Part shown: positions 1 through 15,310 of the stretch, one piece after another
How positions within the stretch are numbered: the first letter of the stretch is position 1
Layout: every line of letters begins with the position of its first letter
Origin: a virus
Strand: one strand, 5' to 3'
Virus genome (UHGV): UHGV-1578121
Length of the DNA stretch: 16,995 bases
The notes under the pieces: generated by a model
The model's input: only the letters and a program-made list of their open reading frames with translations
The model's database searches: none
What the model was told of the DNA's origin: nothing
Made by a program: the position numbers and the translations under genes

Positions 1-113
1 GCGGCGAAATGGCTCACGATATGGCGCATGTAATCAGCATGGTTGATGTTCAGTAGTGCGAACTTATCCGCCGTGTCGATGTACCGGACGGCAGGTTTGA
101 GGATGTCAGGCAT
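1..113 (-). CDS. partial CDS (N-terminus only, continues past window start); hypothetical protein
   Basis: ATG at 113 on minus strand, reads MPDILKPAVRYIDTADKFALLNINHADYMRHIVSHFAA and stays open to the window edge; start overlaps the stop of the upstream gene by 8 nt (operon-style coupling). Confidence 0.35.
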   Translation of the reverse strand, partial: MPDILKPAVRYIDTADKFALLNINHADYMRHIVSHFA

Positions 114-843
114 GTTCACGTTCTCCCAGGCGACGGGCCAGCCAGCGTTGGGCTAATTCGGTGAGACGTTCTTTACGTTCTGGCGTTGGCATATCCATAT
201 CCAGTAGCGCACAGTTACGGCTTTCCAGATACGCGAGCAACGCCAGTTGATCAGCGGTTATATGGTCACGAACTTTTTTTGATGGGATGCCGTTTTTTTT
301 GGCCCATACAGGCGGGTGCATCCCTAATACAAGGCGCGCAATGAAAGTACATTCGTTGTTATAAGCATGACCGTGTTGAGTGTCTCCAGTACGCTCTATG
401 TATCCCTTCATGGCATCCCCCATAGAGCGCATCTCAGCTTTGGCCTCACATCTCTCTGCTATCCAGTTAGCCATGCGGTTAAACTGCGCAATGTATGCCT
501 CTTTGAATGCAGCCGCTTTTTTTCCGGTAAATCCCATTGTTAAAAACACGAAGCCGTCTTTGGTGACTTCGTAGGCTCTCAATACGCGCCCCTTATGCTC
601 AAATTTAACCCGCCGAAAATTGCGGGTTAAAAATTCAGCAGAACAACACAGGTTTTCAATCCGGTTAACAACCTTATCGTGATCCTTTCTGAAAAATCGG
701 GCGATAGCCTGTGAAGTGGTTACAGGCTCACCGCCAGAAGGAAACACTTCCGGCGCAGTGAGTGCATTTTTATTTATTCCGTCAGCAATAATCTCATTGC
801 CGGAAATTACCGAAATAATTGCGGCGAAATCATAATTACGCAT
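106..843 (-). CDS. phage regulatory protein, Rha-like N-terminal domain (245 aa)
   Basis: Provided ORF; N-terminal segment VTTSQAIARFFRKDHDKVVNRIENL...GRVLRAYEVTKDGFVFLTMGFTGKKAAAFKEAYIAQFNRM matches the recalled Rha-domain pattern; overlaps upstream gene by 8 nt. Confidence 0.5.
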   Translation of the reverse strand: MRNYDFAAIISVISGNEIIADGINKNALTAPEVFPSGGEPVTTSQAIARFFRKDHDKVVNRIENLCCSAEFLTRNFRRVKFEHKGRVLRAYEVTKDGFVFLTMGFTGKKAAAFKEAYIAQFNRMANWIAERCEAKAEMRSMGDAMKGYIERTGDTQHGHAYNNECTFIARLVLGMHPPVWAKKNGIPSKKVRDHITADQLALLAYLESRNCALLDMDMPTPERKERLTELAQRWLARRLGEREHA

Positions 844-1351
844 GATTCACCCCCAGAGACGGCGCTGACGTCATCAGGCTGGCGAACGTCTCCATGCGGC
901 GAGCAACTTCCCGCACCGCTTCGGTCGGTGTCATGCCGTTCTGTATCGCCTCGTTAAAAGCCGATATCCCGATTTCTTGTACAACTGACAACAAATGAAA
1001 GCGGTGTTTTGTTTCGTCCTGCTTGAGGTGGCGCATATGTTCTGGGTTACGACCGCGAACAATGCGTAACAAGTAATCATGTTGCATTTCATTCAGCATA
1101 TAGCGCATTTCTGGGCGACCGCGCTTATGGCCTGATTTCAGACTATAGCGAGGCAATGCTCCCAGATCGCGTAACTGCTGCTGATGTTTTTTGATCGTCG
1201 CGCAAAGACTTTCGTGTTGTATTCCTGCTCGCTCAGAAATAACGCGGGAATCAATACGCGACTCTGCTTTGTGGCGAATCAATATATCGTTCTGGTTGAT
1301 TTCAGGCTGAACGAAGCCCTGCCCCTGTACGGGCATATTCGGACGTTTCAT
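836..1351 (-). CDS. hypothetical phage regulatory protein (171 aa), possibly Rha/antirepressor-related
   Basis: Provided ORF in the same operon as alpA and the Rha-like gene; basic protein with an RVISERAGIQHESL...GRPEMRYMLNEMQ segment loosely resembling the Rha pattern. Confidence 0.4.
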   Translation of the reverse strand: MKRPNMPVQGQGFVQPEINQNDILIRHKAESRIDSRVISERAGIQHESLCATIKKHQQQLRDLGALPRYSLKSGHKRGRPEMRYMLNEMQHDYLLRIVRGRNPEHMRHLKQDETKHRFHLLSVVQEIGISAFNEAIQNGMTPTEAVREVARRMETFASLMTSAPSLGVNHA

Positions 1352-1415
1352 TGAAAACTCCTGCTATCGGATCAGGTTTAGTGCTGGGGGAGAATATCCC
1401 CCTCCCAAAAGATTA

Positions 1416-1619
1416 TTACGCGGCGTTGTTGCGAGAAGCATCAATACGCTGGTTAATCCATTCGTCGACTTCACTTTCAATAAAAGCCACGGAGCGGGGA
1501 CCAATTTTTACCGGTTTAGGGAAGCGCCCCAGGCTGATCAGGCGATAAATCCATGCGCGACCGTAACCAGTACGGCGCATAACCTCAGAAAGACGGATGA
1601 ATGAATTGTTATTAGCCAT
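1416..1619 (-). CDS. alpA: AlpA-family phage transcriptional regulator / excisionase-like HTH protein (67 aa)
   Basis: Translation MANNNSFIRLSEVMRRTGYGRAWIYRLISLGRFPKPVKIGPRSVAFIESEVDEWINQR shows the hallmark IRL..V...TG......IY.......FP.P...G.RSV.W.E.EVDEWI pattern of AlpA/CP4-57 regulators; sits downstream of a P4-type integrase. Confidence 0.8.
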   Translation of the reverse strand: MANNNSFIRLSEVMRRTGYGRAWIYRLISLGRFPKPVKIGPRSVAFIESEVDEWINQRIDASRNNAA

Positions 1620-1707
1620 TTATCAATCTCCTTAATGTTGACGCGGAAATCCCCTCCTGTGGCTTAGCAAGAGTTTTATTTGCGTCAAATTACGAACACG
1701 ACAAAAA

Positions 1708-1731
1708 CCACAACATGAAAACATGTTGTGG
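1708..1731. promoter_or_regulatory. perfect palindrome CCACAACATG-AAAA-CATGTTGTGG, candidate operator upstream of alpA
   Basis: 10-bp perfect inverted arms with 4-bp spacer read directly from the sequence, about 90 bp upstream of the alpA start on the minus strand. Confidence 0.4.
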
Positions 1732-2261
1732 TATTGCATAAGATAAATTCAGATTGTTTGGTTGGTATGCTCCAGCAAGGTAGAGCTATTCCCGCTTTCG
1801 GCGGGGTCACACGATTAGGCGTGACGTCCAGTAGTTTTAAAGAGCGCTTTTTCAGTACATGGTGGACGGACAAGAGAGCAATTGCGCTTTGTCAGCGCCG
1901 TAGATTCATATTTGAATCGTTGTATGTTTCCCGATAGCAAATCTATCGGTCACTGCGGGACGAACCATCCCGCCGCATCAATGTTAAAGATCAACAGCAC
2001 TTTGCCAGCGCTCCACCGCCTCATGGATGAATCATTACATGCTTTGTAATAGTGCATGTATCACCATTCTTTCCTGCATCAGGAAAGCACTAAAGGCTGT
2101 TAAAGAGCATCCAGCTTTTCAGCTGCGTAGAAAACTCAATCTTCGTTGTTACAAAGAGCGCCCATACATGACGGATAACTGCGTGAAAAACCCTCTGTAA
2201 GGATGTTAGCTGTAGCTTTCCGTGTACGTTAGCATACATCTGTATACTTGTCCAGTCGTTT

Positions 2262-3476
2262 TTATGCACATACACTAAACTTGCCGTGCACCACGTTTCC
2301 GCCCTGTTCCAGTGAGTCCATATAGTCGGCGTACCACTGGAGCATCTCCCGCCGTCCGTCCAGATATTGCGCGTGATTGTATGTGCCACGGATCGAGTTT
2401 TTATCGACGTGCGCCAGCTGCGTTTCTATCCACGCGGAGTTATAACCCTGCTCATGCAAAATTGTACTCATGGTATGCCGGAACCCATGACCAGTAACGC
2501 GCCCAGCATAGCCAATACGACGAATAAGCACGTTCATCGCCATTTCACTCATCGGTTTACTGTGCTGTATTCGACCAGGGAAAATAAACGGATACTGCCC
2601 CGTCATGTGTTTCAGTTGTTCCAGAATAGCAATCGCCTGTTCTGAAAGCGGCACGCAATGAGGACGGCGCATTTTCATTCGTTCTTTCGGCACTTCCCAC
2701 AGACGATTATCAAAATCAATCTCCTGCCACTCTGCCTGCCGCAATTCACCCGGACGGAGTCCTGTAAGAATCAACAATCGCATACCCAGCTTGACGATCT
2801 GGCTTCCGGTGTACGTATTAAAAACGCGGAAAAATTCCGGTAGCTCATCAACTTTCAGATACGCGTAATGCTCTTTTTTGTGTGGTGCAAATGCGCTTGC
2901 CAGATCAGGAGCGGGGTTATATTCAGCGCGTCCGGTAATTATTGCGTACCGAAACACTTCGCCACATCGCTGGCGAACCTTACGCAATTTTTCAGTTGCG
3001 CCACGGTCATTAAGACGGGATAGAACCGCGAGCAATTCCATCGGCTTAATCTCTGCGATGGGCCTACCTCCAATGTACGGAAAAACGTCTTTTTCAAACG
3101 TCTCTATCATTTCCTCTGCATATGAGGGAGACCATCGGTCCAGGCGTTTTTCATACCACTCACGGGCGATCACCTCAAAGGTGTTACCGCATTTGTTCGC
3201 CTGTTCTCGCTTTTGGGCCTTTCTGACCTCACTCGGATTAACTCCACCAGCGATAAGCCTTTTGGCTTCATCCCTTGCCGTCCTGGCATCAGAAAGGGAC
3301 ACCTCAGGATAGACACCCAGCGACAACATTTTGGGCTTGCCTGCAAACCTGTATCGCAATCGCCAGCCCTTCGAACCGTTCGGCTCAATGAGTAACGAAA
3401 GCCCGTTGCCGTCATTGAGTGTATAGGCTTTCTCTTTTGGCTTCGCGCGGCGGATAGCAAGGTCTGAAAGCAACAT
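2262..3476 (-). CDS. int: P4-type tyrosine integrase (site-specific recombinase)
   Basis: Translation begins MLLSDLAIRRAKPKEKAYTLNDGNGLSLLIEPNGSKGWRLRYRFAGKPK (classic P4-integrase N-terminus) and ends with catalytic motifs HGFRHT...LAHVDKNSIRGTYNHAQY; start placed at the internal ATG 3476 (GGGGG upstream) rather than ORF-track 3515, which has no RBS. Confidence 0.9.
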   Translation of the reverse strand: MLLSDLAIRRAKPKEKAYTLNDGNGLSLLIEPNGSKGWRLRYRFAGKPKMLSLGVYPEVSLSDARTARDEAKRLIAGGVNPSEVRKAQKREQANKCGNTFEVIAREWYEKRLDRWSPSYAEEMIETFEKDVFPYIGGRPIAEIKPMELLAVLSRLNDRGATEKLRKVRQRCGEVFRYAIITGRAEYNPAPDLASAFAPHKKEHYAYLKVDELPEFFRVFNTYTGSQIVKLGMRLLILTGLRPGELRQAEWQEIDFDNRLWEVPKERMKMRRPHCVPLSEQAIAILEQLKHMTGQYPFIFPGRIQHSKPMSEMAMNVLIRRIGYAGRVTGHGFRHTMSTILHEQGYNSAWIETQLAHVDKNSIRGTYNHAQYLDGRREMLQWYADYMDSLEQGGNVVHGKFSVCA

Positions 3477-3533
3477 GTGTATAGCCCCCAAAAAACGATT
3501 TTGTCCTATACGCATTACTATACACTTCTGTGT

Positions 3534-3640: not shown

Positions 3641-3662
3641 TGGAGCGGGCGAAGGGAATCGA
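3641..3662 (-). other. 22-nt partial tRNA 3' end (T-loop to CCA), tRNA-Gly-like; att core/junction direct repeat
   Basis: Reverse complement of 3641-3662 is TCGATTCCCTTCGCCCGCTCCA = T-loop remnant + T-stem 3' strand + acceptor 3' strand + discriminator + CCA; sequence further 5' does not continue as a tRNA. Assignment to tRNA-Gly(CCC) is from memory and unverified. Confidence 0.55.
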
Positions 3663-3747: not shown

Positions 3748-4968
3748 GTGTCGATCAAGAGCCAAGCATACTTATTTAAAAGAAAAGATGGGATCTGGAT
3801 GTTTCAGATTTTTGTTCCTAAATACTTACGTCATCTTTACCCTTATAAGTTGTGGAGAAAAAGCACATCTACACGAGATCTGAATGAGGCGAGAAGATTC
3901 AGAAACCATCTATTATTAGAATGGGAGGAACTAAAGCGGAAACATAATCCTGATAACCCCGAAAGGAGGTTACAACAAGCTATTGAATCCTTACATTCAG
4001 AGGCAAGGGCCAATAAAAACACGCAAAGAGCCGTAAAACGCGGTTATGCACCGCCTTCCCTGTGCCTAATACGTGACGAATACGCCGAATGCTACAGAGA
4101 GCGTCGTTCATACTCAACACTACAGAAATCAGCAAGGGCCGTTGAGCTATTTTTACAAAGCATTCAGAAAGATGATATTCATATTGAGAAAATAGGCAGA
4201 CGGCTTGTAACAGTATTCTTAGATGACCAGAAGCAACGAGGAGCAGCCGATCAATCTCGTCAAAACTGGCTTACATGCTTAGGATCGCTCTATGAATTTG
4301 CTAAACGCCGTTATGACGGAATACCAGACAGTAACCCTTTTCACGGTCATAACCTCGAAGCACGTCGCACAATCGAGAGTTATCAACCGTTTACACCTGA
4401 ACAAATGCAAAAGCTACTTGATGCAGCGGAGCCGGAGATCAGAAATATTATCTTAATGGGCTTGTTTTCAGGGGCCAGATTAGACGAACTGGCAAGCCTG
4501 AAAAAGTCAGAGATTGTAACTGTGGAAGGAATACGCTGTTTTTATATCAGCAAGAGTAAGACTAAGGCAGGGATCAGACACGTTCCGATACATTCGAGAC
4601 TATCGATTATTGTCGATGAATATTTAAATCATAATTATGGTGAATATTTGTTCCCTCATTCAAATAAAGTAAAAAGAACCGACGGTAAGAAAGGCCCGTT
4701 CTATTCTCAAGCGTTCTCACGTTTACGTCGTAGCGTCTTGCCAATCGCTACAAATAGACAATGCTTTCACAGCTTGCGCGGGATGTTTATCACTTGTCTT
4801 GATCGTGCAGGAGTGCCTGAACAGCGGATCGGAGCCATTACCGGACATACAGAGCAGATAGCTAAAACAGAAGCCTTTCGCACCTACTCACAAGGGGCAA
4901 GCATTCCAGAATTAGCTGAATATGTAGAATTAGTAAAATATGAATTAAATATTGATTTTAAGGCGTAA
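3748..4968 (+). CDS. tyrosine recombinase / phage-type integrase (406 aa), second integrase, divergent from the P4-type one
   Basis: GTG start with AGAGGA upstream; C-terminal catalytic region contains HSLRGMFIT (H-x-x-R) and GHTEQIAKTEAFRTYSQ (His and Tyr); visibly more AT-rich codon usage than the left integrase. Confidence 0.8.
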   Translation: MSIKSQAYLFKRKDGIWMFQIFVPKYLRHLYPYKLWRKSTSTRDLNEARRFRNHLLLEWEELKRKHNPDNPERRLQQAIESLHSEARANKNTQRAVKRGYAPPSLCLIRDEYAECYRERRSYSTLQKSARAVELFLQSIQKDDIHIEKIGRRLVTVFLDDQKQRGAADQSRQNWLTCLGSLYEFAKRRYDGIPDSNPFHGHNLEARRTIESYQPFTPEQMQKLLDAAEPEIRNIILMGLFSGARLDELASLKKSEIVTVEGIRCFYISKSKTKAGIRHVPIHSRLSIIVDEYLNHNYGEYLFPHSNKVKRTDGKKGPFYSQAFSRLRRSVLPIATNRQCFHSLRGMFITCLDRAGVPEQRIGAITGHTEQIAKTEAFRTYSQGASIPELAEYVELVKYELNIDFKA

Positions 4969-4988
4969 AACAACGCCATAAACGTAAT

Positions 4989-5020
4989 AAAAAGGCTTCC
5001 TTGTAATGGGAGCCTCTTAT
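4989..5020. terminator. bidirectional intrinsic terminator between convergent genes
   Basis: aaaaaGGCTTCCttgtaatGGGAGCCtcttatat: imperfect GC stem flanked by an A-run on one side and a T-rich run on the other; sits between the stop of the plus-strand integrase (4968) and the stop of the minus-strand 613-aa gene (5076). Confidence 0.5.
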
Positions 5021-5075
5021 ATGCTTAATTCCTTACAAGAGTGTTTTAGATTGTGATTAAATATTCTCTTTATCA

Positions 5076-6917
5076 TTAACTTGGTGCTTGCCCAGACAGA
5101 GCCGCCAACGTGAAACTACGTTCAAAATCTTGTTGGATACTTCCCACTTTGTAATCGAGGTATGATCCAAGCTGACTACCATCAGGGGCGATATTCACAT
5201 CCACCTTGCTTTCCGGCACGTTTACGACGATGTTCGGTGCATACGTCATAGATGGGGTAGTGTTCAGATCACGGCTAACGTTCTGTTTCAAGGATTGCAC
5301 GTTATCGGATGGGCTGGAATAGTTCTGAATTGCAGTGCCGCCAGTTGTTGGCTTGTCTTCCGTGCCAGGGATAGGTGATAAGCCTAAAGCACTACGACCC
5401 CAATCAACCATACCCCCTACAAACGAGTCCTTATAATACATACCGGACGAATCCAATTGCTCGTGCTTATTCTCTGGATTGATTTTTTGATATGCAGCAG
5501 TGATCCACGATACAGCACCAGCAAAGGCGCTCATCATTTCAGCCGTTGAGCTTCCAAGTTCTCTAAACAGAGGATTGAGATCTTTCAGCATTTGCGCCCA
5601 CTCTTCACCAGCTTTCGCGTCGAATTCTTCACCGAATCCCGTCATGATAGCTTTCTTACTACCTTCCCAGGCCATATTCATATTGGCTTGCACTGCCTGG
5701 AGACGTTCAGCAGCGTCCAGATCCGCTTGTGTATAGGTGGCATTGGCTTTTTGCATCTTAACGATGGTTTTGTTTAGCTCTTCACCGTTACGACTGAAAG
5801 CACCACGGAAATATTGTAAATCATTTCCAAGATCTTCAAGAATATGACCTATTTCCTGATCAGAGAGTCCACGGCGTTCTCCTTCTTTCACTACAGCGCC
5901 CAGGAAACCTAATGGATCAGTCTGGAAACCTTTAACCTGTTCAGGACTCCAACCATATTTATTAAGGATGTTATCAACGGCACCGTTACCGCCAGCCCAG
6001 CGACCTTTTTTAGCGTCCCATTTGGTATTCCCTACGGATTCACCTAAACGCTCTTGAACGTCTTTAAGGTTATCTTGACGTTGAGAGACGGAACTATCAA
6101 CACCGTGTTCTAAGCCGTACTGGTTGAGTGCTAACAGGGCGTTAGTGTTGACGTTTACAGCCTTTGCCTTGCGGTTAGTGTCTGTGATCTTGCTTGCCTG
6201 ATCGGTTACGGTATTGAATATCGCAGCACCGCCGAGAGTAGCAGCAGTGAGAGCAGCACCGCCCGCCATTGCACCTACACTACCGCCCATATGACCGCCT
6301 TTAAGCTGTTTAGCCATATGTGGATACTTGCCACCATCAGCCGCCACCTGGCGAGCTTTTACAGCAGCCGCACGGCGTTCTAACGTGATACGATCACGGA
6401 TCAGGTGATTCATCTTAGCCTGACTAATAACGCCTTTCTCATACGCTGCCGTTTGTGCTTTGATGTACTGTAATGTTTTGTAGTATTGGGCGGAGTCCAT
6501 ACCGTCACCCATACGCCCCTTCTTGATGCCTTCAAGCTGTCTAAAAGCTTGCTGGCGTTTAATCTCTGCTTTCTCTGCTATCGTTGCTTTAGCGCGGATC
6601 TGTTTATCGGCAGCTATCGCGGCTTTAGCCTTCGCTTTAGCTTCTGCCTTTGCCACCTTATCAGCATTCTTCTTATCTGTTTGAGCTTGCTTGTCTGACG
6701 CTTTAGCATCAGCTTTAGCCTGTGCAGCTTTACGGGCCTTTACCAGATCGTTAGCATCGTCTATAGCTCGTTTAGCCTTCTTCCCTTTCAATGTTGGATT
6801 GGTTAGGTTTTCCATTTCTTTCTGAAATTTCTTACCTGCATCGCGTGCTTTCTGTAATGATGCAAAATCAACTTTAAAAACGACGCGGTTCGTTAAGGTT
6901 GAGATGTTCAACTCCAT
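5076..6917 (-). CDS. large Lys/Ala-rich coiled-coil protein with a Gly-rich hydrophobic segment; tape-measure-like / virion structural protein (613 aa)
   Basis: AAGGAAAA RBS before ATG 6917; N-terminal KAxAKA-type low-complexity coiled coil, then GGHMGGSVGAMAGGAALTAATLGGAAIF glycine-rich hydrophobic stretch as seen in tail tape-measure proteins; function inferred from composition only. Confidence 0.4.
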   Translation of the reverse strand: MELNISTLTNRVVFKVDFASLQKARDAGKKFQKEMENLTNPTLKGKKAKRAIDDANDLVKARKAAQAKADAKASDKQAQTDKKNADKVAKAEAKAKAKAAIAADKQIRAKATIAEKAEIKRQQAFRQLEGIKKGRMGDGMDSAQYYKTLQYIKAQTAAYEKGVISQAKMNHLIRDRITLERRAAAVKARQVAADGGKYPHMAKQLKGGHMGGSVGAMAGGAALTAATLGGAAIFNTVTDQASKITDTNRKAKAVNVNTNALLALNQYGLEHGVDSSVSQRQDNLKDVQERLGESVGNTKWDAKKGRWAGGNGAVDNILNKYGWSPEQVKGFQTDPLGFLGAVVKEGERRGLSDQEIGHILEDLGNDLQYFRGAFSRNGEELNKTIVKMQKANATYTQADLDAAERLQAVQANMNMAWEGSKKAIMTGFGEEFDAKAGEEWAQMLKDLNPLFRELGSSTAEMMSAFAGAVSWITAAYQKINPENKHEQLDSSGMYYKDSFVGGMVDWGRSALGLSPIPGTEDKPTTGGTAIQNYSSPSDNVQSLKQNVSRDLNTTPSMTYAPNIVVNVPESKVDVNIAPDGSQLGSYLDYKVGSIQQDFERSFTLAALSGQAPS

Positions 6918-6935
6918 AATATTTTCCTTTATCTC

Positions 6936-7151
6936 TTATTTATTCTGTTTTAATACGTAATATTGCACTGCTTCCATAGCGGAGCAGCCCGTAGCAAAAA
7001 TTCTTTGACGTACAGCGGTATTGCTGATCCCTAAAAACTTACATACTTGTGAGATATTTAGAATATCTTCCGGTAAGGTGGAAACAGCTTTCAAGATTTC
7101 AACTGGATTGTTATTTTGTGTGTTCATGGTTTTCTCACTTTTATTCGACAT
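6936..7151 (-). CDS. small HTH DNA-binding protein (71 aa; possibly starts at internal Met, ATG 7127)
   Basis: Contains ISQVCKFLGISNTAVRQRI, a typical helix-turn-helix of excisionase/AlpA-like small regulators; no clear SD at either candidate start. Confidence 0.45.
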   Translation of the reverse strand: MSNKSEKTMNTQNNNPVEILKAVSTLPEDILNISQVCKFLGISNTAVRQRIFATGCSAMEAVQYYVLKQNK

Positions 7152-7265
7152 TAGAAAACAAAAAGGGCAAAGAGATCAGAGCATATTTTGCGTATATGGT
7201 TAATCCCTTCGCCCTTATTGCCTGTTTTATTTCCAGTCGCACAGGAAACGACTATTAACGCTTTA

Positions 7266-8294
7266 TTACGATACAGTGATCTGTACGGTGAAGCCTACGC
7301 CGTGGTTTACAACCATCTGGCTATTCTCGGTAACTACGTTTACAGCGTCGTTACGTGCTGGGCTAAATGCATAGCTGTAATATTCAGCCGCGCCAGAATT
7401 CAGCAGGTCGAACGTTGAAGACGGAGCGCCGTAGATGTTCTGGTAAACGTTAGAGCCTTTAGCGAACTTCGGAACAGCAACCGCATCAGAAGTCATATGA
7501 GCCAGCAGCAGCGGATCGGTGACTTTGATGATATCAATGTTAGTGCCTGGAATAGTGAAGGTAGTCACACCTGGCAGCAGGGAGCGCACGCTATAAACGA
7601 TGTTTGCGTCATCGGTAGGGCTTGCATACTGGAACGCGTTAACCATGCCAGCACTATAACGGATAGCGTTGAAAGCGGCAGGTTTACAGAATACTACGAT
7701 ACGTTCTACAGCCGCTGCCTGACTTTGGGCCTTAGTGATAACGTCTGTATGCAATTGATCGAATTGCTGGAACACCGTAGAAGGTGTGGTGCTTGATGCG
7801 TCGATGGTTGCAGTCAGAGGAACAGCACTAAACAGATCGCCCCACTGGATCAGCACATCATCAGTTTTAGGGGTGTAAGTTTTACCACTGAACAAGGAAG
7901 CGGCTAATATGCTTTCTTTAGTACGCTGGAAAGCGATGTGATGCTTAGCAACATATTCCGCGTAGATATCTGTCAGAGTTTCTTCAACGGTAGCGCCTGG
8001 CTTACGTTTGCCTTGTACGTCTTGCGGTTTAATCACATCTTCACGCAGGAAGTAAGGGATTTCTACCAGCCATTCTTTACCCTGTTCACGCTTAGTTACG
8101 TTGTGTTCAGAAGAGAAACGAGAGGTTTCTTTGTTGAACAGAGATTCGTTAGTTTCTACCAGTTGGCTAACAGCCACTTTATGAGAACTCACGCCTACTG
8201 GATCAGTAAAGTCGAGAGAAGTTAACAGGAAGTTACGAGAGTCATGCAGACTAAACAGCGGAGCCAGATCGACGGATTCATTACCAATAATCAT
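7266..8294 (-). CDS. major capsid protein, lambda gpE-like (342 aa)
   Basis: AAGGAA RBS; length 342 aa vs 341 for lambda E; collinear local resemblances recalled against lambda E (APLFSLHDS vs DPLFLRLFF; ERIVVFCKPAAF vs VNIIVFDPKGWALF); immediately preceded by a ~120-aa gene in the D position. Confidence 0.55.
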   Translation of the reverse strand: MIIGNESVDLAPLFSLHDSRNFLLTSLDFTDPVGVSSHKVAVSQLVETNESLFNKETSRFSSEHNVTKREQGKEWLVEIPYFLREDVIKPQDVQGKRKPGATVEETLTDIYAEYVAKHHIAFQRTKESILAASLFSGKTYTPKTDDVLIQWGDLFSAVPLTATIDASSTTPSTVFQQFDQLHTDVITKAQSQAAAVERIVVFCKPAAFNAIRYSAGMVNAFQYASPTDDANIVYSVRSLLPGVTTFTIPGTNIDIIKVTDPLLLAHMTSDAVAVPKFAKGSNVYQNIYGAPSSTFDLLNSGAAEYYSYAFSPARNDAVNVVTENSQMVVNHGVGFTVQITVS

Positions 8295-8312
8295 TATGTT
8301 TATTCCTTTATA

Positions 8313-8684
8313 TTAAGATGTGAATACAGTGTTAAAACCAGCCATTTGGAAGCCTTTAGCAGCCAGAGCAGCAATAGCGGCTTCTTTAATAGCGCCTTCA
8401 ACATTCAGAGCATCAGACTTGATGCAAACCAGTCCGGCATTGCTACGCAGCACGTTAACGGTTTTAGCGTCGCCAGCGGATACCGCATCAGACACAACCA
8501 TAAGAACATCGCCGCCGCTTACATATTCAGCGCCGTCACTGGTAATCAGATCGCCGCATTCAACATCAACCGCCAGATCAACGGTAAAAGATTGCACACA
8601 ACCGAACTCATCAGTTGCATATGAAACGATATCGGTAAATGATTTGCGAACTGGAAACAGATCGCTCATATTAATAATAGCCAT
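8313..8684 (-). CDS. putative head decoration protein, gpD-like (123 aa)
   Basis: AAGGAAAC RBS; size and position directly upstream of the E-like capsid gene mimic the lambda D-E pair; Ala/Gly/Val-rich; no confident motif match. Confidence 0.4.
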   Translation of the reverse strand: MAIINMSDLFPVRKSFTDIVSYATDEFGCVQSFTVDLAVDVECGDLITSDGAEYVSGGDVLMVVSDAVSAGDAKTVNVLRSNAGLVCIKSDALNVEGAIKEAAIAALAAKGFQMAGFNTVFTS

Positions 8685-8686
8685 AA

Positions 8687-8902
8687 TTAATAGTTTCCTT
8701 TTTTGGATTGTTTGATTTGTTCTGCTTTTGCTTTAATCAGATCCTGCATAGTAGGTTTCTGTTCATCAGCAGACTTAAAAAGCTTATCACAATGTTTTTT
8801 CAATTCTGTTGGAGTGATCCCCAACATATAAGCCGTAGCATTGAATGTTTCATCAGTGATAATCAATTCTTCGTTACCATTCTTTAGAATTAGATTTTGC
8901 AT
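8687..8902 (-). CDS. hypothetical small protein (71 aa from internal ATG; ORF-track version 8687..8929)
   Basis: Stop overlaps the D-like start region (4-nt spacing); the second ATG has a weak AAAGG upstream, the first has none. Confidence 0.45.
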   Translation of the reverse strand: MQNLILKNGNEELIITDETFNATAYMLGITPTELKKHCDKLFKSADEQKPTMQDLIKAKAEQIKQSKKGNY

Positions 8903-8950
8903 TGTTGCTTTACCTTTTATTCCTAACATTCTTGTTTAGTGCTGATAAAA

Positions 8951-8980
8951 TAAAACCGGAAGGGAAAAGCTTCCGGCTTT
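8951..8980 (-). terminator. rho-independent terminator (minus-strand orientation favoured)
   Basis: Perfect 7-bp stem CCGGAAG/CTTCCGG with 7-nt loop; on the minus strand the stem is followed by TTTTATTTTAT; located immediately upstream of the capsid gene block. Confidence 0.6.
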
Positions 8981-9783
8981 ATGAATACAACATTGAAGGA
9001 TGTTATAGAGTAGTGTTACTAAATCGCAGTTATATGCACTTAAAGAGGTAGGACATATAAGAATAAGATTTCTTATTGTTATAAGCCCTTGAGGGGTGAA
9101 TAACAGGCTTACAGAGGAGTAGGCGCTTAGGAGGTCGCCCCCTTGGAAAGGAATCATTGTAAACCTGTTATTCGTGCGATGGCTAATCGCTGTCTTTCTC
9201 AATGTGGATGCATCGATCAGACTATTCAGGAATCACCTATTAACTTTCAAACCTTTTGGATTCTCATTTTAATAGGAGGCGGTGCCGAGATGATTTCGGG
9301 GATCATCCACGCTTTCGCGTTCTAAGATTGACACCTTAATAAACACCAACAAAAACATATTCAGCTCATTGTTGTCAAGAAACAATATACACCGTTATTT
9401 GTTTATACGGGGTTTATAGAACACTGAAAAACAGTGCTTTTAGAAAGTGTTTCGTGTTTCATGCTTCATAGTTGATTAAAAGATGAGGGGCCAAGTCCAT
9501 AGCCCCTGCATTCTCAAATACACAATATGATAAAGCAATAAAGAATAAGGAAAATAAAATGAAACTATTTTTTAAGAGGAAACAATTTCTAAAAATCACT
9601 GTAAATGGAAAGCGAGGTAGGTTAGATAGGGCGCAACCCCTTGAGGTCTACCCCGCTTTCATGTAGATTAGAATAGGGAGAAGAATTAACACCAGCTAAC
9701 TCCAATTTCCATTCAATACTCTTCATTTATTATTCTAACAGATTTGTCAGTAGAAGTCAATATTTAAATCAATAAAAATTAAT

Positions 9784-9876
9784 TTATTTTTCGTTTGTTA
9801 ATTCCCACTTACCGAACATGCAGTTGCCATCTAAAACAATAGTTTGTTCGTTACCGTTATCATCGGTTACGTGCAT
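9784..9876 (-). CDS. hypothetical small protein (30 aa), translationally coupled
   Basis: ATG overlaps the stop of the upstream 38-aa ORF (TGATG); reads MHVTDDNGNEQTIVLDGNCMFGKWELTNEK; below the ORF-track size cut-off, found by manual translation. Confidence 0.3.
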   Translation of the reverse strand: MHVTDDNGNEQTIVLDGNCMFGKWELTNEK

Positions 9877-9992
9877 CAGGCGGCCTGAGTGTCGAGCTTA
9901 CCAGTGTAGATCTTGCCTACTGTGAAACAATGGCACGATATGCCTTCTTCTGTAAGTGCCAGTAAACGGGCACGTTTGGTTTTTACTGTCAT
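9876..9992 (-). CDS. hypothetical small protein (38 aa), translationally coupled
   Basis: ATG overlaps the stop of the upstream 102-aa ORF (ATGA); reads MTVKTKRARLLALTEEGISCHCFTVGKIYTGKLDTQAA; found by manual translation. Confidence 0.3.
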   Translation of the reverse strand: MTVKTKRARLLALTEEGISCHCFTVGKIYTGKLDTQAA

Positions 9993-10297
9993 TGGTTAAC
10001 CTTATCGATTAGTTCTGCTATGAGTGGTTGAAGATCAGCTACCGCTTGTTGCATGATTTCAGTGGTGTCATTGATCACGATAATCAGGTTACTCAGATCA
10101 TCAGCTTCAACCTGTGCACCTTCGGATTGTTCGCACGCTGCAATAAGTAGTTGCAATGCTTCCCGCGTCGATTCCAGATTAATAACCGCCTGTGTGATGG
10201 TCAGTTCGCTTGGATATTCCATCGCTGCGTTAACTGCTTTCTGCAAGTCAATAACAAGGTCCATCATTTGGATAGTTACGTTGTGTACTTCGCTCAT
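9989..10297 (-). CDS. hypothetical highly acidic alpha-helical protein (102 aa)
   Basis: Provided ORF; strongly acidic composition (many D/E, few K/R); start overlaps stop of the upstream 70-aa ORF by 1 nt. Confidence 0.55.
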   Translation of the reverse strand: MSEVHNVTIQMMDLVIDLQKAVNAAMEYPSELTITQAVINLESTREALQLLIAACEQSEGAQVEADDLSNLIIVINDTTEIMQQAVADLQPLIAELIDKVNQ

Positions 10298-10509
10298 TAT
10301 GCCGCTTCCTCTAATTGTTGTTGTGCTTCACGAGCTTTAGTCAATGCAATCTGTAGCGGTATTCTGTAAGTTGCAATGCTGTCTACAACGTCATCCAGAG
10401 TTGCCAGATCGTTCTCTTCCTTTGCACGTTCAATAATATTTATAAAACATTCTGAAAGAAGCTTAAGATCATGAAAAGTGGTTGTCTCTAAAATTACTTT
10501 GTTAATCAT
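10297..10509 (-). CDS. hypothetical acidic helical protein (70 aa)
   Basis: Provided ORF; coupled to the downstream 102-aa ORF; ends with QQQLEEAA helical tail. Confidence 0.5.
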   Translation of the reverse strand: MINKVILETTTFHDLKLLSECFINIIERAKEENDLATLDDVVDSIATYRIPLQIALTKAREAQQQLEEAA

Positions 10510-10550
10510 TTTATTTTCCTTTTGTTAAGGGTTATATTCAGCCAACGCTG

Positions 10551-10931
10551 TTAATCGTCTATTTTTATTCTTTCAAGCATAAGTAACTCTGTCTCTCTTG
10601 CGCCTGCATACTGCAAACTATTAAGAGCCATGTAGCCACGAAAATGATTCATATCCTGGAAGCCTAAACACTGCCACCTTTTAAGAAGGCTGCTATCAAT
10701 GATTGTTGTTTTGCGTGGGCGTGGATTGAAGTAAACACCATCCATACTTTGAATGATTGATAATTCTTCGTCTGTCAATTCTGGGCTTGGTTCTTCAAGT
10801 ATAAAGATCAATTCCTCGCCTGGTTGTGCATCATGCTCATAATTATATTTGCGAGGATTGTTTAACGCATACTGATCACATGCTTCGCCAATAGCCATTA
10901 TTACGTTTTTCTTGCTTTTTTGCTTGCTCAT
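10551..10931 (-). CDS. hypothetical protein (126 aa)
   Basis: Provided ORF with strong AGGGGA RBS about 7 nt upstream of the ATG; no recognisable motif. Confidence 0.55.
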   Translation of the reverse strand: MSKQKSKKNVIMAIGEACDQYALNNPRKYNYEHDAQPGEELIFILEEPSPELTDEELSIIQSMDGVYFNPRPRKTTIIDSSLLKRWQCLGFQDMNHFRGYMALNSLQYAGARETELLMLERIKIDD

Positions 10932-11043
10932 TGCTTCCCCTTCGTTTTGGTTTTCTTGTTGCAGTGTTAAAAAAGGAAGCGATCATGAATACTAAGAAAA
11001 ATATTAAGCTTTCCATTGTTTCACCCTTCAAGATGTTTGATAG

Positions 11044-11064
11044 TTGTTTGTTGTTTGTTGTTTG
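11044..11064. repeat. tandem heptamer repeat (TTGTTTG)x3 in an intergenic gap
   Basis: Read directly: ttgtttg ttgtttg ttgtttg tttt between the 72-aa and 126-aa minus-strand genes. Confidence 0.6.
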
Positions 11065-11066
11065 TT

Positions 11067-11285
11067 TTAAGCTACAGAGTCGATTCTGAATGCTTTCATA
11101 TGAGTTTTTGTATACTGCAATAATCCTTGTTTACTTAGGTTATCGAGAAGAGCATATAAAAATTGCACACCTACCACACCGGAAAACTCAGAATCAAACA
11201 GAATCATTCCCGTTCTTTCCCGTAAATATTGCAGAAAGATTTCTTGTGAAAATTCGCCATCGAATATGATCACAGTGTCACCCAC
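11067..11285 (-). CDS. hypothetical protein (72 aa); GTG start with no RBS, may be the C-terminal part of a frameshifted gene together with 11270..11527
   Basis: Provided ORF; first codon is GTG with an in-frame stop immediately upstream; overlaps the 85-aa ORF by 16 nt in another frame. Confidence 0.35.
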   Translation of the reverse strand: MGDTVIIFDGEFSQEIFLQYLRERTGMILFDSEFSGVVGVQFLYALLDNLSKQGLLQYTKTHMKAFRIDSVA

Positions 11286-11527
11286 AATTCAAACGGGCTT
11301 ATCTCAAGCAGTCTGAACGTTTGATTATTCACAGCTTCATACTGAATTACCCCAAAATGGCTTAGGTGATTTAGCCAATGCTGCGTGTGTTCTTTACTGT
11401 GCGGTAACTCCTGAAAGCTGATAATCGCGGGTAGCTCATAATTGCTATCAGCAAGCTGTTTTGCCAGTGTGTAGCCGCTTTCTGTAATTTCGAATGTTCG
11501 TTTGTTTAATGTCAGGTTGTATTTCAT
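11270..11527 (-). CDS. hypothetical protein (85 aa); possibly the N-terminal part of a frameshifted/fused gene
   Basis: Provided ORF, tightly packed after the 221-aa gene; 3' end overlaps the next ORF. Confidence 0.45.
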   Translation of the reverse strand: MKYNLTLNKRTFEITESGYTLAKQLADSNYELPAIISFQELPHSKEHTQHWLNHLSHFGVIQYEAVNNQTFRLLEISPFELWVTL

Positions 11528-11539
11528 TTTTTATTCTCC

Positions 11540-12205
11540 TTAAAATGGTATTGAGTCATAGATTTCACTTTCTTTTCTCAGGGCTATCATCAGTGCATTA
11601 AAAGCATCATCTTCAAGAATTATCCTCTTCGAGGTCAGTGCACGTTTTATAAAATTTTCTGTTTCTTCTTGCATAGGCTTTTGGCTGTCTATGGAAATAA
11701 GCCATGTAAAAAGATCAGATTGTTCCGTGATTTCTGCCTGTGTTTCCTGCTCAATAGAGTGTGTCGCTTCTAACGGTTCCTGTGTTTCAGGTGCAGGCTG
11801 TTCTACGTTTACAGAGGTTTTTACGTCTTCCGGTGGTGTGATGTGTGCATCTGTAAAGGGTAATGCTTTATAGAGTGATGTTTGCCCGTCCCGTGCCTCT
11901 ACAGAAAGAACACCCATATCAATAAACATATTTATAATATTACGCACCTGACGATCACTAACCATTCCAATATTAGCTAATGTTTTTTGATTGGCGTAAC
12001 ATTCTTGCCCTTGTTCATTGAACCCAGCTACGTAACTGTAGATTTCAACGGCTGGAAGTGTCGCGGTGTATTCCTTACCTGACGGTGAGAACCACTTTTT
12101 AAACATCTTCAGCCATTGTTCAACTACTACATATGTTTGTTTACTATCTTTCTTATTGAGGCATTGCGCTTTTGCTTCGGCAATTGTTTTGGTGTTTTGG
12201 TTCAT
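11540..12205 (-). CDS. putative replication-initiator-like / winged-HTH DNA-binding protein with acidic C-terminal half (221 aa)
   Basis: Strong AAGGAGG RBS; N-terminal region YSYVAGFNEQGQECYANQKTLANIGMVSDRQVRNIINMFIDMGVL resembles the N-terminal DNA-binding domain of lambda-O-type replisome organisers (recalled pattern); C-terminal part E/Q/T-rich. Confidence 0.45.
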   Translation of the reverse strand: MNQNTKTIAEAKAQCLNKKDSKQTYVVVEQWLKMFKKWFSPSGKEYTATLPAVEIYSYVAGFNEQGQECYANQKTLANIGMVSDRQVRNIINMFIDMGVLSVEARDGQTSLYKALPFTDAHITPPEDVKTSVNVEQPAPETQEPLEATHSIEQETQAEITEQSDLFTWLISIDSQKPMQEETENFIKRALTSKRIILEDDAFNALMIALRKESEIYDSIPF

Positions 12206-12329
12206 TTAGTTCCTCCTTTGTAAGGACTGTAATTAGTAATTCATTAACAAGTTTTGGAATTGATTTCCCTTCTGCCTTTGCACGATTTAACAACGCGTTA
12301 TAAGTTGCAGAATCAAAATTAATATTCAT
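12153..12329 (-). CDS. putative ribbon-helix-helix-like small regulator (58 aa), overlaps start of the 221-aa gene
   Basis: Manual translation MNINFDSATYNALLNRAKAEGKSIPKLVNELLITVLTKEE: beta-strand then helix pattern typical of RHH/CopG-like proteins; strong AAGGAG RBS; 53-nt out-of-frame overlap with the next gene lowers confidence. Confidence 0.35.
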   Translation of the reverse strand: MNINFDSATYNALLNRAKAEGKSIPKLVNELLITVLTKEELNEPKHQNNCRSKSAMPQ

Positions 12330-12352
12330 TTGGCTTTCTCCTTCTCCTGTTA

Positions 12353-12535
12353 TTATTCTTTCTCTACTTCTGCCTTACGCAGTTCATCAATAATTTTTAG
12401 TGCATCGTCAAAGCATTTTTCACGCTCTGGATAACCACAGCGCCGCGCTGTGTTCCTGTTCATCCTTACTTGATGTCGTGTTAGCTCACCTTTTTTAAAT
12501 GCCTCTACGACGTGTTCCGGTGTATACCATTTCAT
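12353..12535 (-). CDS. hypothetical small basic protein (60 aa), first gene of the leftward early operon
   Basis: Provided ORF with strong AAGGAG RBS 6 nt upstream; directly downstream of the long non-coding region. Confidence 0.5.
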   Translation of the reverse strand: MKWYTPEHVVEAFKKGELTRHQVRMNRNTARRCGYPEREKCFDDALKIIDELRKAEVEKE

Positions 12536-13404
12536 AAAAACTCCTTATTTAGATAAAAGAAAAACACACCTTGCAGCCTAACGGCTCAAAGTGCAGTGTT
12601 CTGTGATTTGATTATTTAGATGGAGAGAGATGTTTCTCCCCTCCCTACTTACAATACTACATAACGGCGGCTTTGTCAACCCTCTTTTATAAAAAATTTG
12701 ATCATTTTCAATTTCTTATAATTTTTCTTAGCTTTTTGTGCTGCCTACTCTGGTACAATTCTTCCCTGTTGTCTAAAACGCTCTCAATCGCACTCTGACG
12801 GGGTTTTGATAAAAATAATACATTCCCTTATGTAGAGGTTGTTTATCTCGTCAGAGGCTTATTTAAGGGGCTTATTTTTGATTTATCAGATGATGGAAAG
12901 ATGGTGGATAGATAAACTCTGATTTCAGACATCTTATAAAATACCTGCAAAGTTCTCAGAAGCTCTGTAACGAGCTAATCTATTACCGCTAAGGTGTTTC
13001 CCTTACATTACCCTGTTTAGCTCGCCTACGGCTTGATTTAAGCGGTAGAATCTTATTTAACCTTCAACTACAAAAACCATTCTTTCTTTTTTGTTGTTGG
13101 TTGTTTTGTCATGTTATGCGTTAGCATCCCCAAAGGGTAACGCGACACTAACAACCATTCGCTTACGCTCAGGTTATTGCACAAGTAAATTTCAATCGTT
13201 AGATGGTAGTTAGTTAATTATCGTTCTGCGCACAGCGCAAGACTATTAGCCATACGCAAGTCGTAGGCTATTTGCACATAGTAGATTACATATTCGTTGT
13301 GAGCGGAAAGCGAACATAGATCAGCTAACTACTAACAAAAAACAAAAAACAAAAACTATCTGTTATGACAAGCATCAGTCTAACTTGTGCAAGGTTCTGG
13401 CGAA

Positions 13405-13473
13405 TGCCAATAGATTAAGGGATAGTCGAAGACTCCCTAACGGGTATCCCTATAATTATTCTTTAAAAGATAA
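13405..13473. repeat. copy 1 of a ~70-bp direct repeat containing a nested hairpin (AGGGATA...TATCCCT) and a TATAAT hexamer
   Basis: tgccaatagattaagggatagtcgaagactccctaacgggtatccctataattattctttaaaagataa read directly; near-identical copy at 13588-13657. Confidence 0.7.
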
Positions 13474-13518
13474 AAGAATTTATAAAAGATAGTTTAATTG
13501 TAGTTTAATTATAGTATT

Positions 13519-13571
13519 GTAGGAACTCATTTCCTGGGTAGGTAGGAACTCATTTCCTGGGTAGGTAGGAA
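13519..13571. repeat. 23-bp tandem repeat x2.3 (gtaggaactcatttcctgggtag), each unit with internal palindrome AGGAA-ctcat-TTCCT
   Basis: Read directly; lies between the two copies of the 70-bp direct repeat. Confidence 0.7.
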
Positions 13572-13587
13572 ACCCGCACTATACGAT

Positions 13588-13657
13588 TGCCAATAGATTA
13601 AGGGATAGTCGAAGACTCCCCTAACGGGTATCCCTATAATTATTCTTTAAAAGATAA
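13588..13657. repeat. copy 2 of the ~70-bp direct repeat (one extra C relative to copy 1)
   Basis: tgccaatagattaagggatagtcgaagactcccctaacgggtatccctataattattctttaaaagataa read directly. Confidence 0.7.
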
Positions 13658-14334
13658 TTATAGTTAGTTGTTAGTTTTATTATTAGTATTATTAAAGTAA
13701 TCTTATTGTCAGTCATCGTGACCGACACCCCCCCACACAACATCTGTGCAATGATCTTCTAAAAGTGTTTCTTGCTATCAAAAATTAAAAAAACAGGCTT
13801 AAATTCAAGATTAATTGATGATTAATCCCTATGTAATTCCATACTAAAAATTCAATGAAAAGTAGATTCAAAGTGCAATTCTTACTTTCTTCACTTTTAC
13901 ATTATCATCAGCAAAGCCTTATGTAATGCGGCATATAGCGTATCACTGCAAAATTGTTGCTCAATAAACGTTCTACCATTTGTTGAACGAATGTTCACTC
14001 GTGCACATCTCAAAGAGAATAATTATTTATCATACAATTCCATAATAAGAATTATTATCACTTATAATGCAATACAACCCAGATTCGATACACTTTAGCA
14101 AAGTGTATTCTGTAACCTACTGATCTTTATATACTCAGGCATATATAGACCATTTATCGCTATTTATTGGCTTTTTTTCATCTGCCGAAAATAAATTTCT
14201 TGACAAGACAGATCATTTGTGAGCGGCTTGCATAAAATAAATTTACTTATAAATCAACAAGATATTTCATATTTGTGCCTGCATCAGATCGGGAGGCTTG
14301 ATCTTTGTGTTCAACGATGGTGACGGACGCACCT

Positions 14335-14420
14335 AAATTAAATCGGTTTTAATCGCCTTTAATACCTTTTAATCAGTCTTAATCACCTTTTAATAGCCCT
14401 TTAATCATTTTTGATCATTT
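14335..14420. promoter_or_regulatory. array of eight TTTTAATC-like repeats phased at 10-11 bp (helical repeat): candidate curved DNA / iteron / protein-binding array upstream of the short recombinase gene
   Basis: aatcggtttt aatcgccttt aatacctttt aatcagtctt aatcaccttt taatagccct ttaatcattt ttgatcattt read directly with near-constant 10-bp period. Confidence 0.6.
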
Positions 14421-15305: not shown

Positions 15306-15310
15306 CGATT

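Follow-up and report, generated by a model that had tools for sequence, protein, structure and literature searches.

The window analysed here, from UHGV virus genome UHGV-1578121 (16,995 nucleotides, one strand), is Escherichia coli chromosome, with a megablast identity of 100% to strain PSJ-16 and of 99.9% to strain MJ-T. It contains an integrative element of 13,828 bp, which runs from position 3641 past the right end of the window. The left boundary of this element is represented by a distal attachment (att) copy at 3641-3662 (TGGAGCGGGCGAAGGGAATCGA), the sequence of which is identical to the 3' end of a tRNA-Gly gene sitting just outside the right end of the window (within the window, ARAGORN found no tRNA and Rfam gave no match). 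In MJ-T the 22-nt att repeat is present at 12002-12023 and at 25830-25851, the latter copy being inside the tRNA-Gly gene, with a spacing of 13,828 bp. The copies of the element in MJ-T and SCU-102 are flanked on one side by a GH15 gene, which sits where the ETT2 type III secretion island ends, and on the other by the tRNA-Gly gene next to actS/xdhA, a locus which we take to be glyU. The initial annotation had delimited a block at 3748-8929; its genes are real, but the block amounts to only about a third of the element, which additionally encompasses a minus-strand operon of small genes with a Rep-like (replication initiator-like) gene (9989-12535), a 1.9-kb non-coding stretch, a small tyrosine recombinase gene and four cargo open reading frames (ORFs).

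All ORFs previously listed for the block were found to be present and intact at the same coordinates. A large tyrosine integrase of 406 aa with a DUF6538 N-terminal domain is encoded on the plus strand at 3748-4968 (Pfam Phage_integrase 1.2e-12, DUF6538 2e-09; phrog_1 3e-38) and is 80% identical to its counterparts in elements of K. pneumoniae and Citrobacter. The remaining genes of the block form a structural operon on the minus strand. Within it, the 342-aa product of the gene at 7266-8294 had been proposed to be a major capsid protein (MCP) resembling lambda gpE, a proposal which is borne out by its Phage_cap_E score (PF03864, 3.2e-12; 46.6 bits with a gathering cut-off of 22.9). Residues 25-341 correspond to profile positions 20-329 of 329, so that the profile match assigns the protein to the Phage_cap_E (lambda gpE-type) family over the full domain. 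It can be aligned end to end with the MCP of phage anhysbys (25% identity, 6e-13), and the profile of its family matches the solved Phi92_gp124 at 1.9e-17.

The 613-aa protein encoded at 5076-6917 (minus strand) matches phrog_16051 ('tail length tape measure protein', 3e-67) and is a homolog of phi92 gp134 and of the phAPEC8-type tape measure protein (TMP), in agreement with the tape-measure-like role first suggested for it. BLASTP against the TMP of anhysbys, the gene of which is located after the sheath, tube and chaperone genes, returned an end-to-end alignment (4e-58) involving the N terminus and residues 165-611, while the solved Phi92_gp134, in an entry which also contains the tube initiator gp135, was matched at 6e-51. 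On the basis of this full-length homology the protein is assigned as a tail TMP.

For the 123-aa protein encoded at 8313-8684 (minus strand), no sequence match was obtained with Pfam, PHROGs, PADLOC, NCBIfam, tblastn against phages, BLASTP against a phage decoration protein or a PDB profile search. An AlphaFold model derived from an 18-sequence family alignment (mean predicted local distance difference test score, pLDDT, of 74) has a gpD/SHP-like fold, with which Foldseek searches of BFVD and PDB were concordant. This fold, a size in the range of ~110-130 aa and the position beside an E-type MCP point to a head decoration (cement) protein of the gpD or phage 21 SHP type, as the earlier D-like label had it; the assignment is made by fold comparison with a model of moderate confidence and is itself of moderate confidence. 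Between the MCP and TMP genes lies the small helix-turn-helix (HTH) protein which had been noted in the block (6936-7151, minus strand, 71 aa); its matches to HTH or excisionase-like families are weak, and an ORF of 60-79 aa occupies this position in all family members examined.

The first ORF of the structural operon (8687-8929, minus strand) is kept at the same position in the family and has no family match in Pfam, PHROGs or tblastn against phages. It had been described as a gene of about 70 aa followed by a terminator and non-coding DNA: the small size, the terminator and ~1 kb of non-coding DNA upstream of the operon were all recovered, although the ORF is of 80 aa (71 aa in RefSeq). The intrinsic terminator (8944-8977, minus strand; dG -23.3 kcal/mol, z -5.6) is situated directly upstream of the operon, and a GC hairpin with a T-run is present 30-90 nt upstream of the first structural gene in 11 of the 11 family members inspected. 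This terminator is the only conserved feature found there; shared late-promoter motifs ahead of the structural operon were searched for as well, and none emerged. On the minus strand the non-coding interval 8930-9988 also presents a sigma-70-like promoter (9760-9732) and a terminator-like hairpin (9507-9486) ahead of the strong terminator (8977-8944), features which could belong to one or two small RNAs or to an antitermination switch.

In no ORF of the element was a match found by Pfam, PHROGs or NCBIfam to a portal, prohead protease, scaffold, terminase, sheath, tube or baseplate family, which upholds the earlier statement that portal, protease, scaffold and terminase are missing. Judged by these profile searches, the element appears to carry an incomplete virion and packaging gene set, as the definition of a satellite has it.

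Distribution, selection and replication of the element family

The same compact gene set, a search for which had been recommended, was found to be syntenic in at least eight enterobacterial genera (Escherichia, Klebsiella, Citrobacter, Kluyvera, Buttiauxella, Scandinavium, Enterobacter and Pantoea). The family as a whole consists of Enterobacterales elements with a size of 12-14 kb. In the fetched loci, several of which are draft or Logan assemblies, the gene order is small ORF, decoration protein, MCP, small ORF, TMP and integrase, preceded on the upstream side by small genes, the gene of a Rep-like protein, a long stretch of non-coding DNA and a small recombinase gene. Homologs of the MCP, 342-357 aa in length, were retrieved from E. 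coli, Klebsiella, Citrobacter, Cronobacter, Enterobacter, Dryocola, Serratia and Pantoea, and the element MCPs constitute one coherent group with 30-98% mutual identity. The TMPs are 21-35% identical between element groups as compared to 25-42% to phage TMPs, a pattern which suggests fast evolution or repeated exchange. The MCPs of L005 (Pantoea allii) and L014 (Enterobacter ludwigii) are 88% identical to each other; the TMP-like gene of L014 specifies 630 aa and is barely similar to other TMPs.

Near-complete copies (at least 80% coverage) of the window-type element were found in 58 of 5,426 complete E. coli genomes, and copies of the commonest variant's structural module, near-complete by the same measure, in 287. 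This common variant is inserted in a LysR-family gene beside scpABC-type genes, carries a serine resolvase instead of the small tyrosine recombinase and possesses an additional 237-aa Dit_like gene after the TMP gene.

Comparison of the window with the SCU-102 copy revealed no stop codons or frameshifts in any gene, and ratios of non-synonymous to synonymous substitution rates (dN/dS) ranging from 0.07 to 0.24. For the MCP the ratio is 0.07 (14 non-synonymous and 56 synonymous differences) and for the TMP 0.08 (32 and 94, respectively). The check for decay proposed in the initial annotation thus came out in favour of intact genes, and both MCP and TMP are under strong purifying selection. Synonymous divergence between window positions 3748-16964 and the SCU-102 element, which occupies the same site, is 0 for the 221-aa Rep gene, 0.04 for the integrase, 0.28 for MCP and TMP, and 0.64 for the small ORF p102, a mosaic which indicates recombination among element variants.

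Circular forms were also encountered. Two Logan contigs, of 14,051 nt (Pantoea) and 13,944 nt (E. coli), have the 30-nt terminal overlaps expected of circles at k = 31, and in the Pantoea contig ParA spans the circle junction. Two E. coli contigs from NCBI (13,786 and 13,624 nt) start and end inside the TMP gene, the ORF of which is continuous (~615-620 aa) upon circularization. The circular copies are without the large integrase, and element sizes are uniform, being 13.6-14.0 kb for integrated and plasmid forms alike. In three E. coli circular forms (L051, L052 and L053) a T4 Imm-like superinfection-immunity protein (PF14373) is encoded right behind the tube initiator, and these forms have a 495-aa Rep of a different type.

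The operon located upstream of the structural genes encodes a putative replication initiator (Rep; 11540-12205, minus strand, 221 aa) with an HTH_36-type winged HTH, this tentative annotation being based on weak profile matches to phrog_270 ('replication initiation protein', 7e-06) and to HTH_36 (under the Pfam cut-off). A ribbon-helix-helix-like protein, p58 (12153-12329, minus strand, 58 aa), is common to the element and phi92-like phages, has homologs in four other family members and is unannotated in RefSeq; its ORF overlaps the annotated start of the Rep gene by 53 nt, and Rep may actually begin at Met34, further downstream. The putative origin (13401-13657) is part of the long non-coding stretch and contains a 23-nt semi-palindromic iteron (GTAGGAACTCATTTCCTGGGTAG) repeated 2.3 times at 13519-13571, flanked by two direct repeats of 73-74 nt and AT-rich DNA. 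Elsewhere in the family the iteron arrays consist of a 23-nt repeat of different sequence (3.7 copies, common E. coli variant), of 32-nt arrays (K. pneumoniae) or of a 42-nt repeat (2.6 copies, Pantoea). Over 50 loci the repeat core covaries with the Rep allele: among loci with one Rep allele the iterons are conserved while their flanks diverge, and loci with other alleles have different arrays in the same place. Because of this covariation and of the retention of the repeats within an allele, the long non-coding stretch is read as a putative Rep-plus-iteron origin, which would make the element a replicon of its own.

The integrase, the att repeats, the Rep with its cognate iterons and the circular forms together represent the integration and replication functions of a mobile element. 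It is close to certain that the element is a conserved and selected mobile replicon rather than prophage debris.

Relatives of the element genes in phi92- and phAPEC8-like phages

The nearest phage relatives of the MCP (24-26% identity over the full length) belong to Phapecoctavirus and related large myoviruses, alongside many Pseudomonas phages, and no phage with a close MCP was found, all phage matches being below 60% identity. The best phage matches of the TMP are to Phapecoctavirus and Justusliebigvirus (~30% identity and 1e-43 for Phapecoctavirus TMPs), the element proteins measuring 599-630 aa and the phage ones 651-662 aa. In relatives of the window element, the Dit_like protein is a tail-tube initiator, as it matches Phi92_gp135 at 2e-78 and also the PhiTE 'tube initiator'; it is 56-78% identical to the phage protein, values which fall inside or close to the range of 69-82% found between phage genera. 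In phi92 (Justusliebigvirus) the gp124 MCP, the decoration protein, the gp134 TMP and the gp135 tube initiator are of the same protein families as those of the element, and the local order is alike in both, with the decoration protein followed by the MCP and the TMP by the tube initiator. The phi92 genes, however, are part of a 147-kb virulent genome and are separated by ~6 kb of neck, sheath and tube genes, whereas the element retains these pieces only, at 21-42% identity to their phi92-like counterparts (the 56-78% of the tube initiator in relatives excepted). According to taxonomy and annotation, phi92-like phages are virulent and have no prophage state. The lambda-like character first attributed to the D/E pair consequently holds at the level of fold and Pfam family, but the helpers are probably not lambda-like phages; they would be large virulent myoviruses of the Stephanstirmvirinae.

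The non-structural half of the element, when compared by blastn to 50,697 phage records, matched Stephanstirmvirinae only. Window positions 11850-12110, in the Rep-like gene, are 91% identical at nucleotide level to a gene of phages muut (gp094), inny, Mt1B1_P17 and BI-EHEC, and positions 12177-12343, corresponding to p58, are 95% identical to PaulScherrer (Bas60) bas60_0101 and to VEcB, the amino acid identity to bas60_0101 being 91%. Nucleotide identities of 91-95% imply recent recombination in a shared cell. A concatenated tblastn search with twelve other small element proteins against all phages yielded no Stephanstirmvirinae match.

The first of these phage genes, which specifies ~330 aa (muut gp094, Mt1B1_P17 gp053) and is located in the early region among small accessory genes, is carried by six phage records only. 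Its product consists of two tandem HTH_36 winged-helix domains and a C-terminal domain which matches phrog_681 'endonuclease' at 2e-18 and, with scores at or close to the Pfam cut-off, the MUG113 and T5orf172 families related to GIY-YIG. In Mt1B1_P17 gp053, residues 1-119 share 82% identity with the N-terminal Rep domain found in the common E. coli variant, residues 119-226 share 75% with the stretch 30-143 of the window Rep, and residues 230-326 cover the phrog_681 'endonuclease' and MUG113/T5orf172 region. The nuclease domain is absent from all element loci. [quoted passage not shown] The gp053/gp094 protein shares the Odn architecture and differs from it by having two Rep-type domains in tandem; by analogy, we infer that it may be aimed at the origin of the element.

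A candidate satellite, its rivals and known satellites

Taken together, the element is probably an undescribed phage satellite of phi92/phAPEC8-like virulent myoviruses (Stephanstirmvirinae), which would produce a small shell of its own and chimeric tails on helper parts. Comparative evidence supports the satellite reading strongly. Under this interpretation, infection by a phi92- or phAPEC8-like phage would lead to excision of the element and its replication from the iteron origin, and the structural operon would then be expressed past the conserved upstream terminator. The element MCP and decoration protein would form a small shell for ~14 kb on the portal, scaffold/protease and terminase of the helper, a shell which would exclude the 147-kb helper genome. 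The element TMP, with the tube initiator in some relatives, would replace that of the helper in otherwise helper-made contractile tails, as in the case of PLE with ICP1. Because PLE tails lose 10 nm for a TMP shortened by 95 aa, tails ~4-7 nm shorter are predicted from TMPs which are 38-49 aa shorter. The helper would be harmed by the element, and such harm would explain why some phages have a chimeric GIY-YIG-type nuclease with DNA-binding domains of two Rep alleles, in analogy to Odn. In its general form, the proposal is that satellites widespread in Enterobacterales supply only shell and tail core, obtain portal, maturation, packaging and the rest of the tail from the helper, and are engaged in an arms race with a dual-specificity, origin-directed nuclease made from captured Rep domains; to this broader statement we give even chances. 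The suggestion in the initial annotation of a satellite supplying only its own capsid shell and decoration protein therefore stands with respect to the shell and cement genes, but has to be extended by a homologous TMP (and tube initiator in relatives) and by a Rep/iteron replicon.

Several observations weigh against the proposed satellite role. Induction, packaging, transfer and helper dependence are deduced here from sequence, the indirect signs being the genes in common with Stephanstirmvirinae, the narrow band of element sizes and the chimeric nuclease encoded by phages. Neither a homolog of the small terminase subunit (TerS) nor a recognizable pac or cos site was found in the element. Since the MCP is only 21-26% identical to Stephanstirmvirinae MCPs, it is uncertain whether it could assemble together with the portal, scaffold and protease of a helper, and an unsampled relative may be the real helper. 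The GIY-YIG assignment relies on the PHROG annotation and on MUG113 scores at the level of the Pfam cut-off of 22.3 (22.5 bits for muut gp094 and 21.2 for Mt1B1_P17 gp053), and the product of the chimeric gene could be a homing endonuclease of the ordinary kind or a regulator. The winged HTH domains might also have been donated by phage to the element rather than taken from it. The Pantoea allii member is without a TMP gene. The IMG/VR matches are mostly prophage calls in isolate genomes and hence do not constitute encapsidation or virome evidence; moreover, the MCP has no match among PLSDB plasmids, and no family member was found deposited as a phage or plasmid.

A related explanation, which we regard as unlikely, is that the element is the satellite of a different, unsampled helper (such as a myovirus, temperate or virulent, whose E-type MCP is closer), its likeness to Stephanstirmvirinae being due to ancestry and occasional exchange. 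The low MCP identity just mentioned, a decoration protein in which no sequence similarity to theirs could be detected, a profile search returning a continuum of 215 E-type MCP relatives of unknown context, and distant 12-kb relatives in a host of 36% GC would all be accommodated by such a helper. The 91-95% nucleotide identity to Stephanstirmvirinae early genes nevertheless shows that both were recently together in one cell, the tube initiator reaches 78% identity and as such is nested in the phage-to-phage range of 69-82%, and it is in Stephanstirmvirinae that the nuclease with element Rep domains is found.

Slightly less probable still is an unpackaged mobile anti-phage defence island, in which the MCP, decoration, TMP and tube-initiator homologs would act as dominant-negative decoys that poison phi92-like assembly, and which would spread by other means or only vertically. 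The structural homologs are indeed divergent copies of helper parts, a phage nuclease apparently aimed at the element implies harm to the phage, and interference with tail assembly is a known defence strategy (PMC11364771; PMC12987554). For a decoy, however, a complete and conserved pair of MCP and cement protein across eight genera is superfluous; the narrow size band of 13.6-14.0 kb, common to integrated and plasmid forms, suggests a packaging constraint, and a self-amplifying Rep/ori module is typical of satellites. Defence and satellite roles are furthermore not exclusive, PLE being both.

A decayed lambda-like or phi92-like prophage that has lost portal, protease, terminase and most tail genes, which was the alternative raised in the initial annotation and which would fit the presence of virion-module fragments only and the prophage label given to such regions by IMG/VR pipelines, is refuted to the point of being highly improbable by a compact gene set and order kept in eight genera at 30-98% MCP identity, by dN/dS values of 0.07-0.08 for MCP and TMP (0.07-0.24 overall) with neither frameshifts nor stop codons, by circular integrase-less plasmid forms with their own replicon, and by the lack both of a known phage with a close MCP (all <60% identity) and of a prophage state in phi92-like phages. 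Equally improbable is an autonomous miniature phage or phage-plasmid with portal, terminase and tail proteins hidden among the small ORFs: plasmid forms with ParA do exist and most small ORFs are unannotated, but at least ~400 aa would be required for a large terminase and likewise for a portal, whereas no ORF of the window element exceeds 224 aa once integrase, TMP and MCP are set aside, and Pfam, PHROGs and NCBIfam gave no match to a terminase or a portal.

The satellite reading can be placed next to known systems, and the closest parallels are with PLE, which was compared by description; no sequence homology to known satellite genes was found. Both are integrative elements (PLE ~18 kb, the present one ~14 kb) facing a large virulent myovirus (the presumed helper in the present case), both have their own RepA or Rep and an iteron origin swapped as a module, and both face a helper with a chimeric T5orf172-type nuclease that copies the DNA-binding domain of the satellite Rep (Odn in the case of ICP1; PMC8263062). 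Both also have a TMP which is shorter than that of the helper and ~20-40% identical to it, together with a baseplate-core protein, for chimeric tails, the tails themselves having been shown for PLE (PMC12987554). The PLE-encoded versions of the TMP, tail assembly chaperone and hub are 20-41% identical to those of ICP1 and are selectively incorporated, and a TMP shorter by 95 aa goes with PLE tails shorter by 10 nm (PMC12987554). PLE small capsids are built from ICP1 coat protein, as cited in PMC12846349. The present element, in contrast, has its own MCP and cement protein, and its tyrosine integrase, HTH_36-type Rep and Enterobacterales host also set it apart from PLE as described. The PLE integrase is a serine integrase, and PLE small capsids use the TcaP scaffold. 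The resemblance to PLE appears to be functional (own TMP, Rep and iterons, Odn-like phage nuclease), the present element being known from its genes.

Phage-inducible chromosomal islands that form capsids (cf-PICIs) are described as encoding all proteins for small-capsid production and exclusive packaging, and as stealing tails only (bioRxiv 2022.09.08.507074), and some cf-PICIs are among the other putative satellites for which tmp genes are reported (PMC12987554, Extended Data Fig. 10). Like cf-PICIs such as EcCIEDL933, the element is an enterobacterial island with its own HK97-fold MCP, the production of small capsids being established on the cf-PICI side; it differs in that no portal, protease, head-tail connector or terminase gene was matched. 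Of the full head and packaging module in its described form (MCP, protease, portal, connectors and a terminase subunit), only an MCP, of the E family, and a decoration protein, gpD-type as a cement protein, were found. With P4-like satellites the element has in common an integrative life at a tRNA gene with a size of ~11-14 kb, a possible plasmid life and, as a prediction on the side of the element, the redirection of capsid size to a small shell. P4 itself uses the MCP of its temperate helper and has the external scaffold Sid, Psu, an alpha primase-helicase and cos sites; in SatelliteFinder, Psu, Sid, Delta, the alpha primase-helicase and cos are reportedly the defining genes of P4-like satellites. 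No Pfam or PHROGs match to Psu, Sid, Delta or alpha was obtained in the element. [quoted passage not shown] The Streptomyces satellites MulchRoom and MiniFlayer, which are actinobacterial and siphovirus-based, have encapsidation genes of their own and are described as lacking key replication genes (PMC10690885); own encapsidation genes are thus common to them and the element, in which a Rep/ori module is present and packaging genes are absent. As judged from its gene content, the possession of a capsid and cement protein without packaging genes sets the element apart from the P4-like, classical PICI and cf-PICI definitions and would be new within phage satellites. No description of the element family was found in the full-text literature, and papers outside the searched collection may exist.

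Confirmation would make this the first case in E. coli, the best genetic model to hand, of a satellite system of large virulent myoviruses, and it would bridge satellites without capsid genes and cf-PICIs with a full head module by indicating that a foreign MCP can be grafted onto the portal and packaging machinery of a helper. The chimeric-tail strategy of Vibrio PLEs would then be general, and the apparent Odn-like nuclease would represent an independent second case of phages weaponizing the DNA-binding specificity of a satellite. Phi92- and phAPEC8-like phages are present in phage-therapy and biocontrol collections, and resident elements, if their role is confirmed, could limit the efficacy of such phages or be spread by them.

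Further genes, distant relatives and the neighbouring island

The first small ORF of the early/replication operon, p60 (12353-12535, minus strand), is 33-82% identical at amino acid level to its counterparts in five loci (L003, L006, L013, L015 and L045), with a dN/dS of 0.11-0.12 where measurable. At the other end of this operon, the five small ORFs p102, p70, p126, p72 and p85 (9989-11527, minus strand; dN/dS 0.10-0.24) have no Pfam, PHROGs or phage matches; p126 alone is conserved family-wide, and its AlphaFold2 model (pLDDT 41) is unusable.

The small tyrosine recombinase (14422-15096, plus strand; 192-224 aa) matches Pfam Phage_integrase (1e-15) and phrog_216 (5e-29), with a FimB/E-type resemblance that is below the cut-off. 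It is retained in plasmid forms and is replaced by a serine resolvase in L015-type elements. The recombinase, or the serine resolvase of the common variant, probably resolves multimers of the circular form, a role as multimer resolvase or invertase of this form being likely for the tyrosine recombinase. A 19-nt inverted repeat (89% complementary; 12699-12717 and 14450-14468) brackets the 1.7-kb non-coding iteron stretch beside the recombinase gene, and no inversion of the bracketed segment was observed, the orientation being the same in six of six loci.

The region next to the tRNA-side att (15090-16964) carries cargo which varies among family members, namely p71 (plus strand) and p139, p216 and p186 (minus strand), and is inside the att-att interval in MJ-T and SCU-102. 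The p139 protein is coiled-coil and zinc-ribbon-like, p216 is membrane-anchored, and p186 is secreted and Ser-rich, its C-terminal half being 42% identical to a hypothetical protein of temperate Klebsiella phages. PADLOC made no defence-system assignment for the structural or cargo genes.

Distant relatives were recovered as two Logan contigs (L057 and L058, ~11,965 nt, 36% GC), the MCP of which is 28% identical to the window MCP. They encode an integrase, a 581-aa TMP_3 protein, a PhiTE_211-like small protein, a decoration protein and an MCP, arranged differently from the window element, and the strategy may thus extend beyond Enterobacteriaceae. Copies interrupted by insertion sequences were also seen, with an IS3 in PSJ-16 (NZ_AP027632.1), which is otherwise identical to the window, and an IS21 within the MCP region of HCM-22C-2 (NZ_AP038228.1).

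The left part of the window (1-3515) is occupied by a separate island with a P4-type integrase (2262-3515), the AlpA gene at 1416-1619 and two Rha-like regulators (106-1351). It is inserted in tandem on the main element's distal att copy, and both MJ-T and SCU-102 are without it. The relatives of the main element in L021 and L022 are likewise flanked by an island, which in their case encodes a P4-type integrase and a reverse transcriptase.

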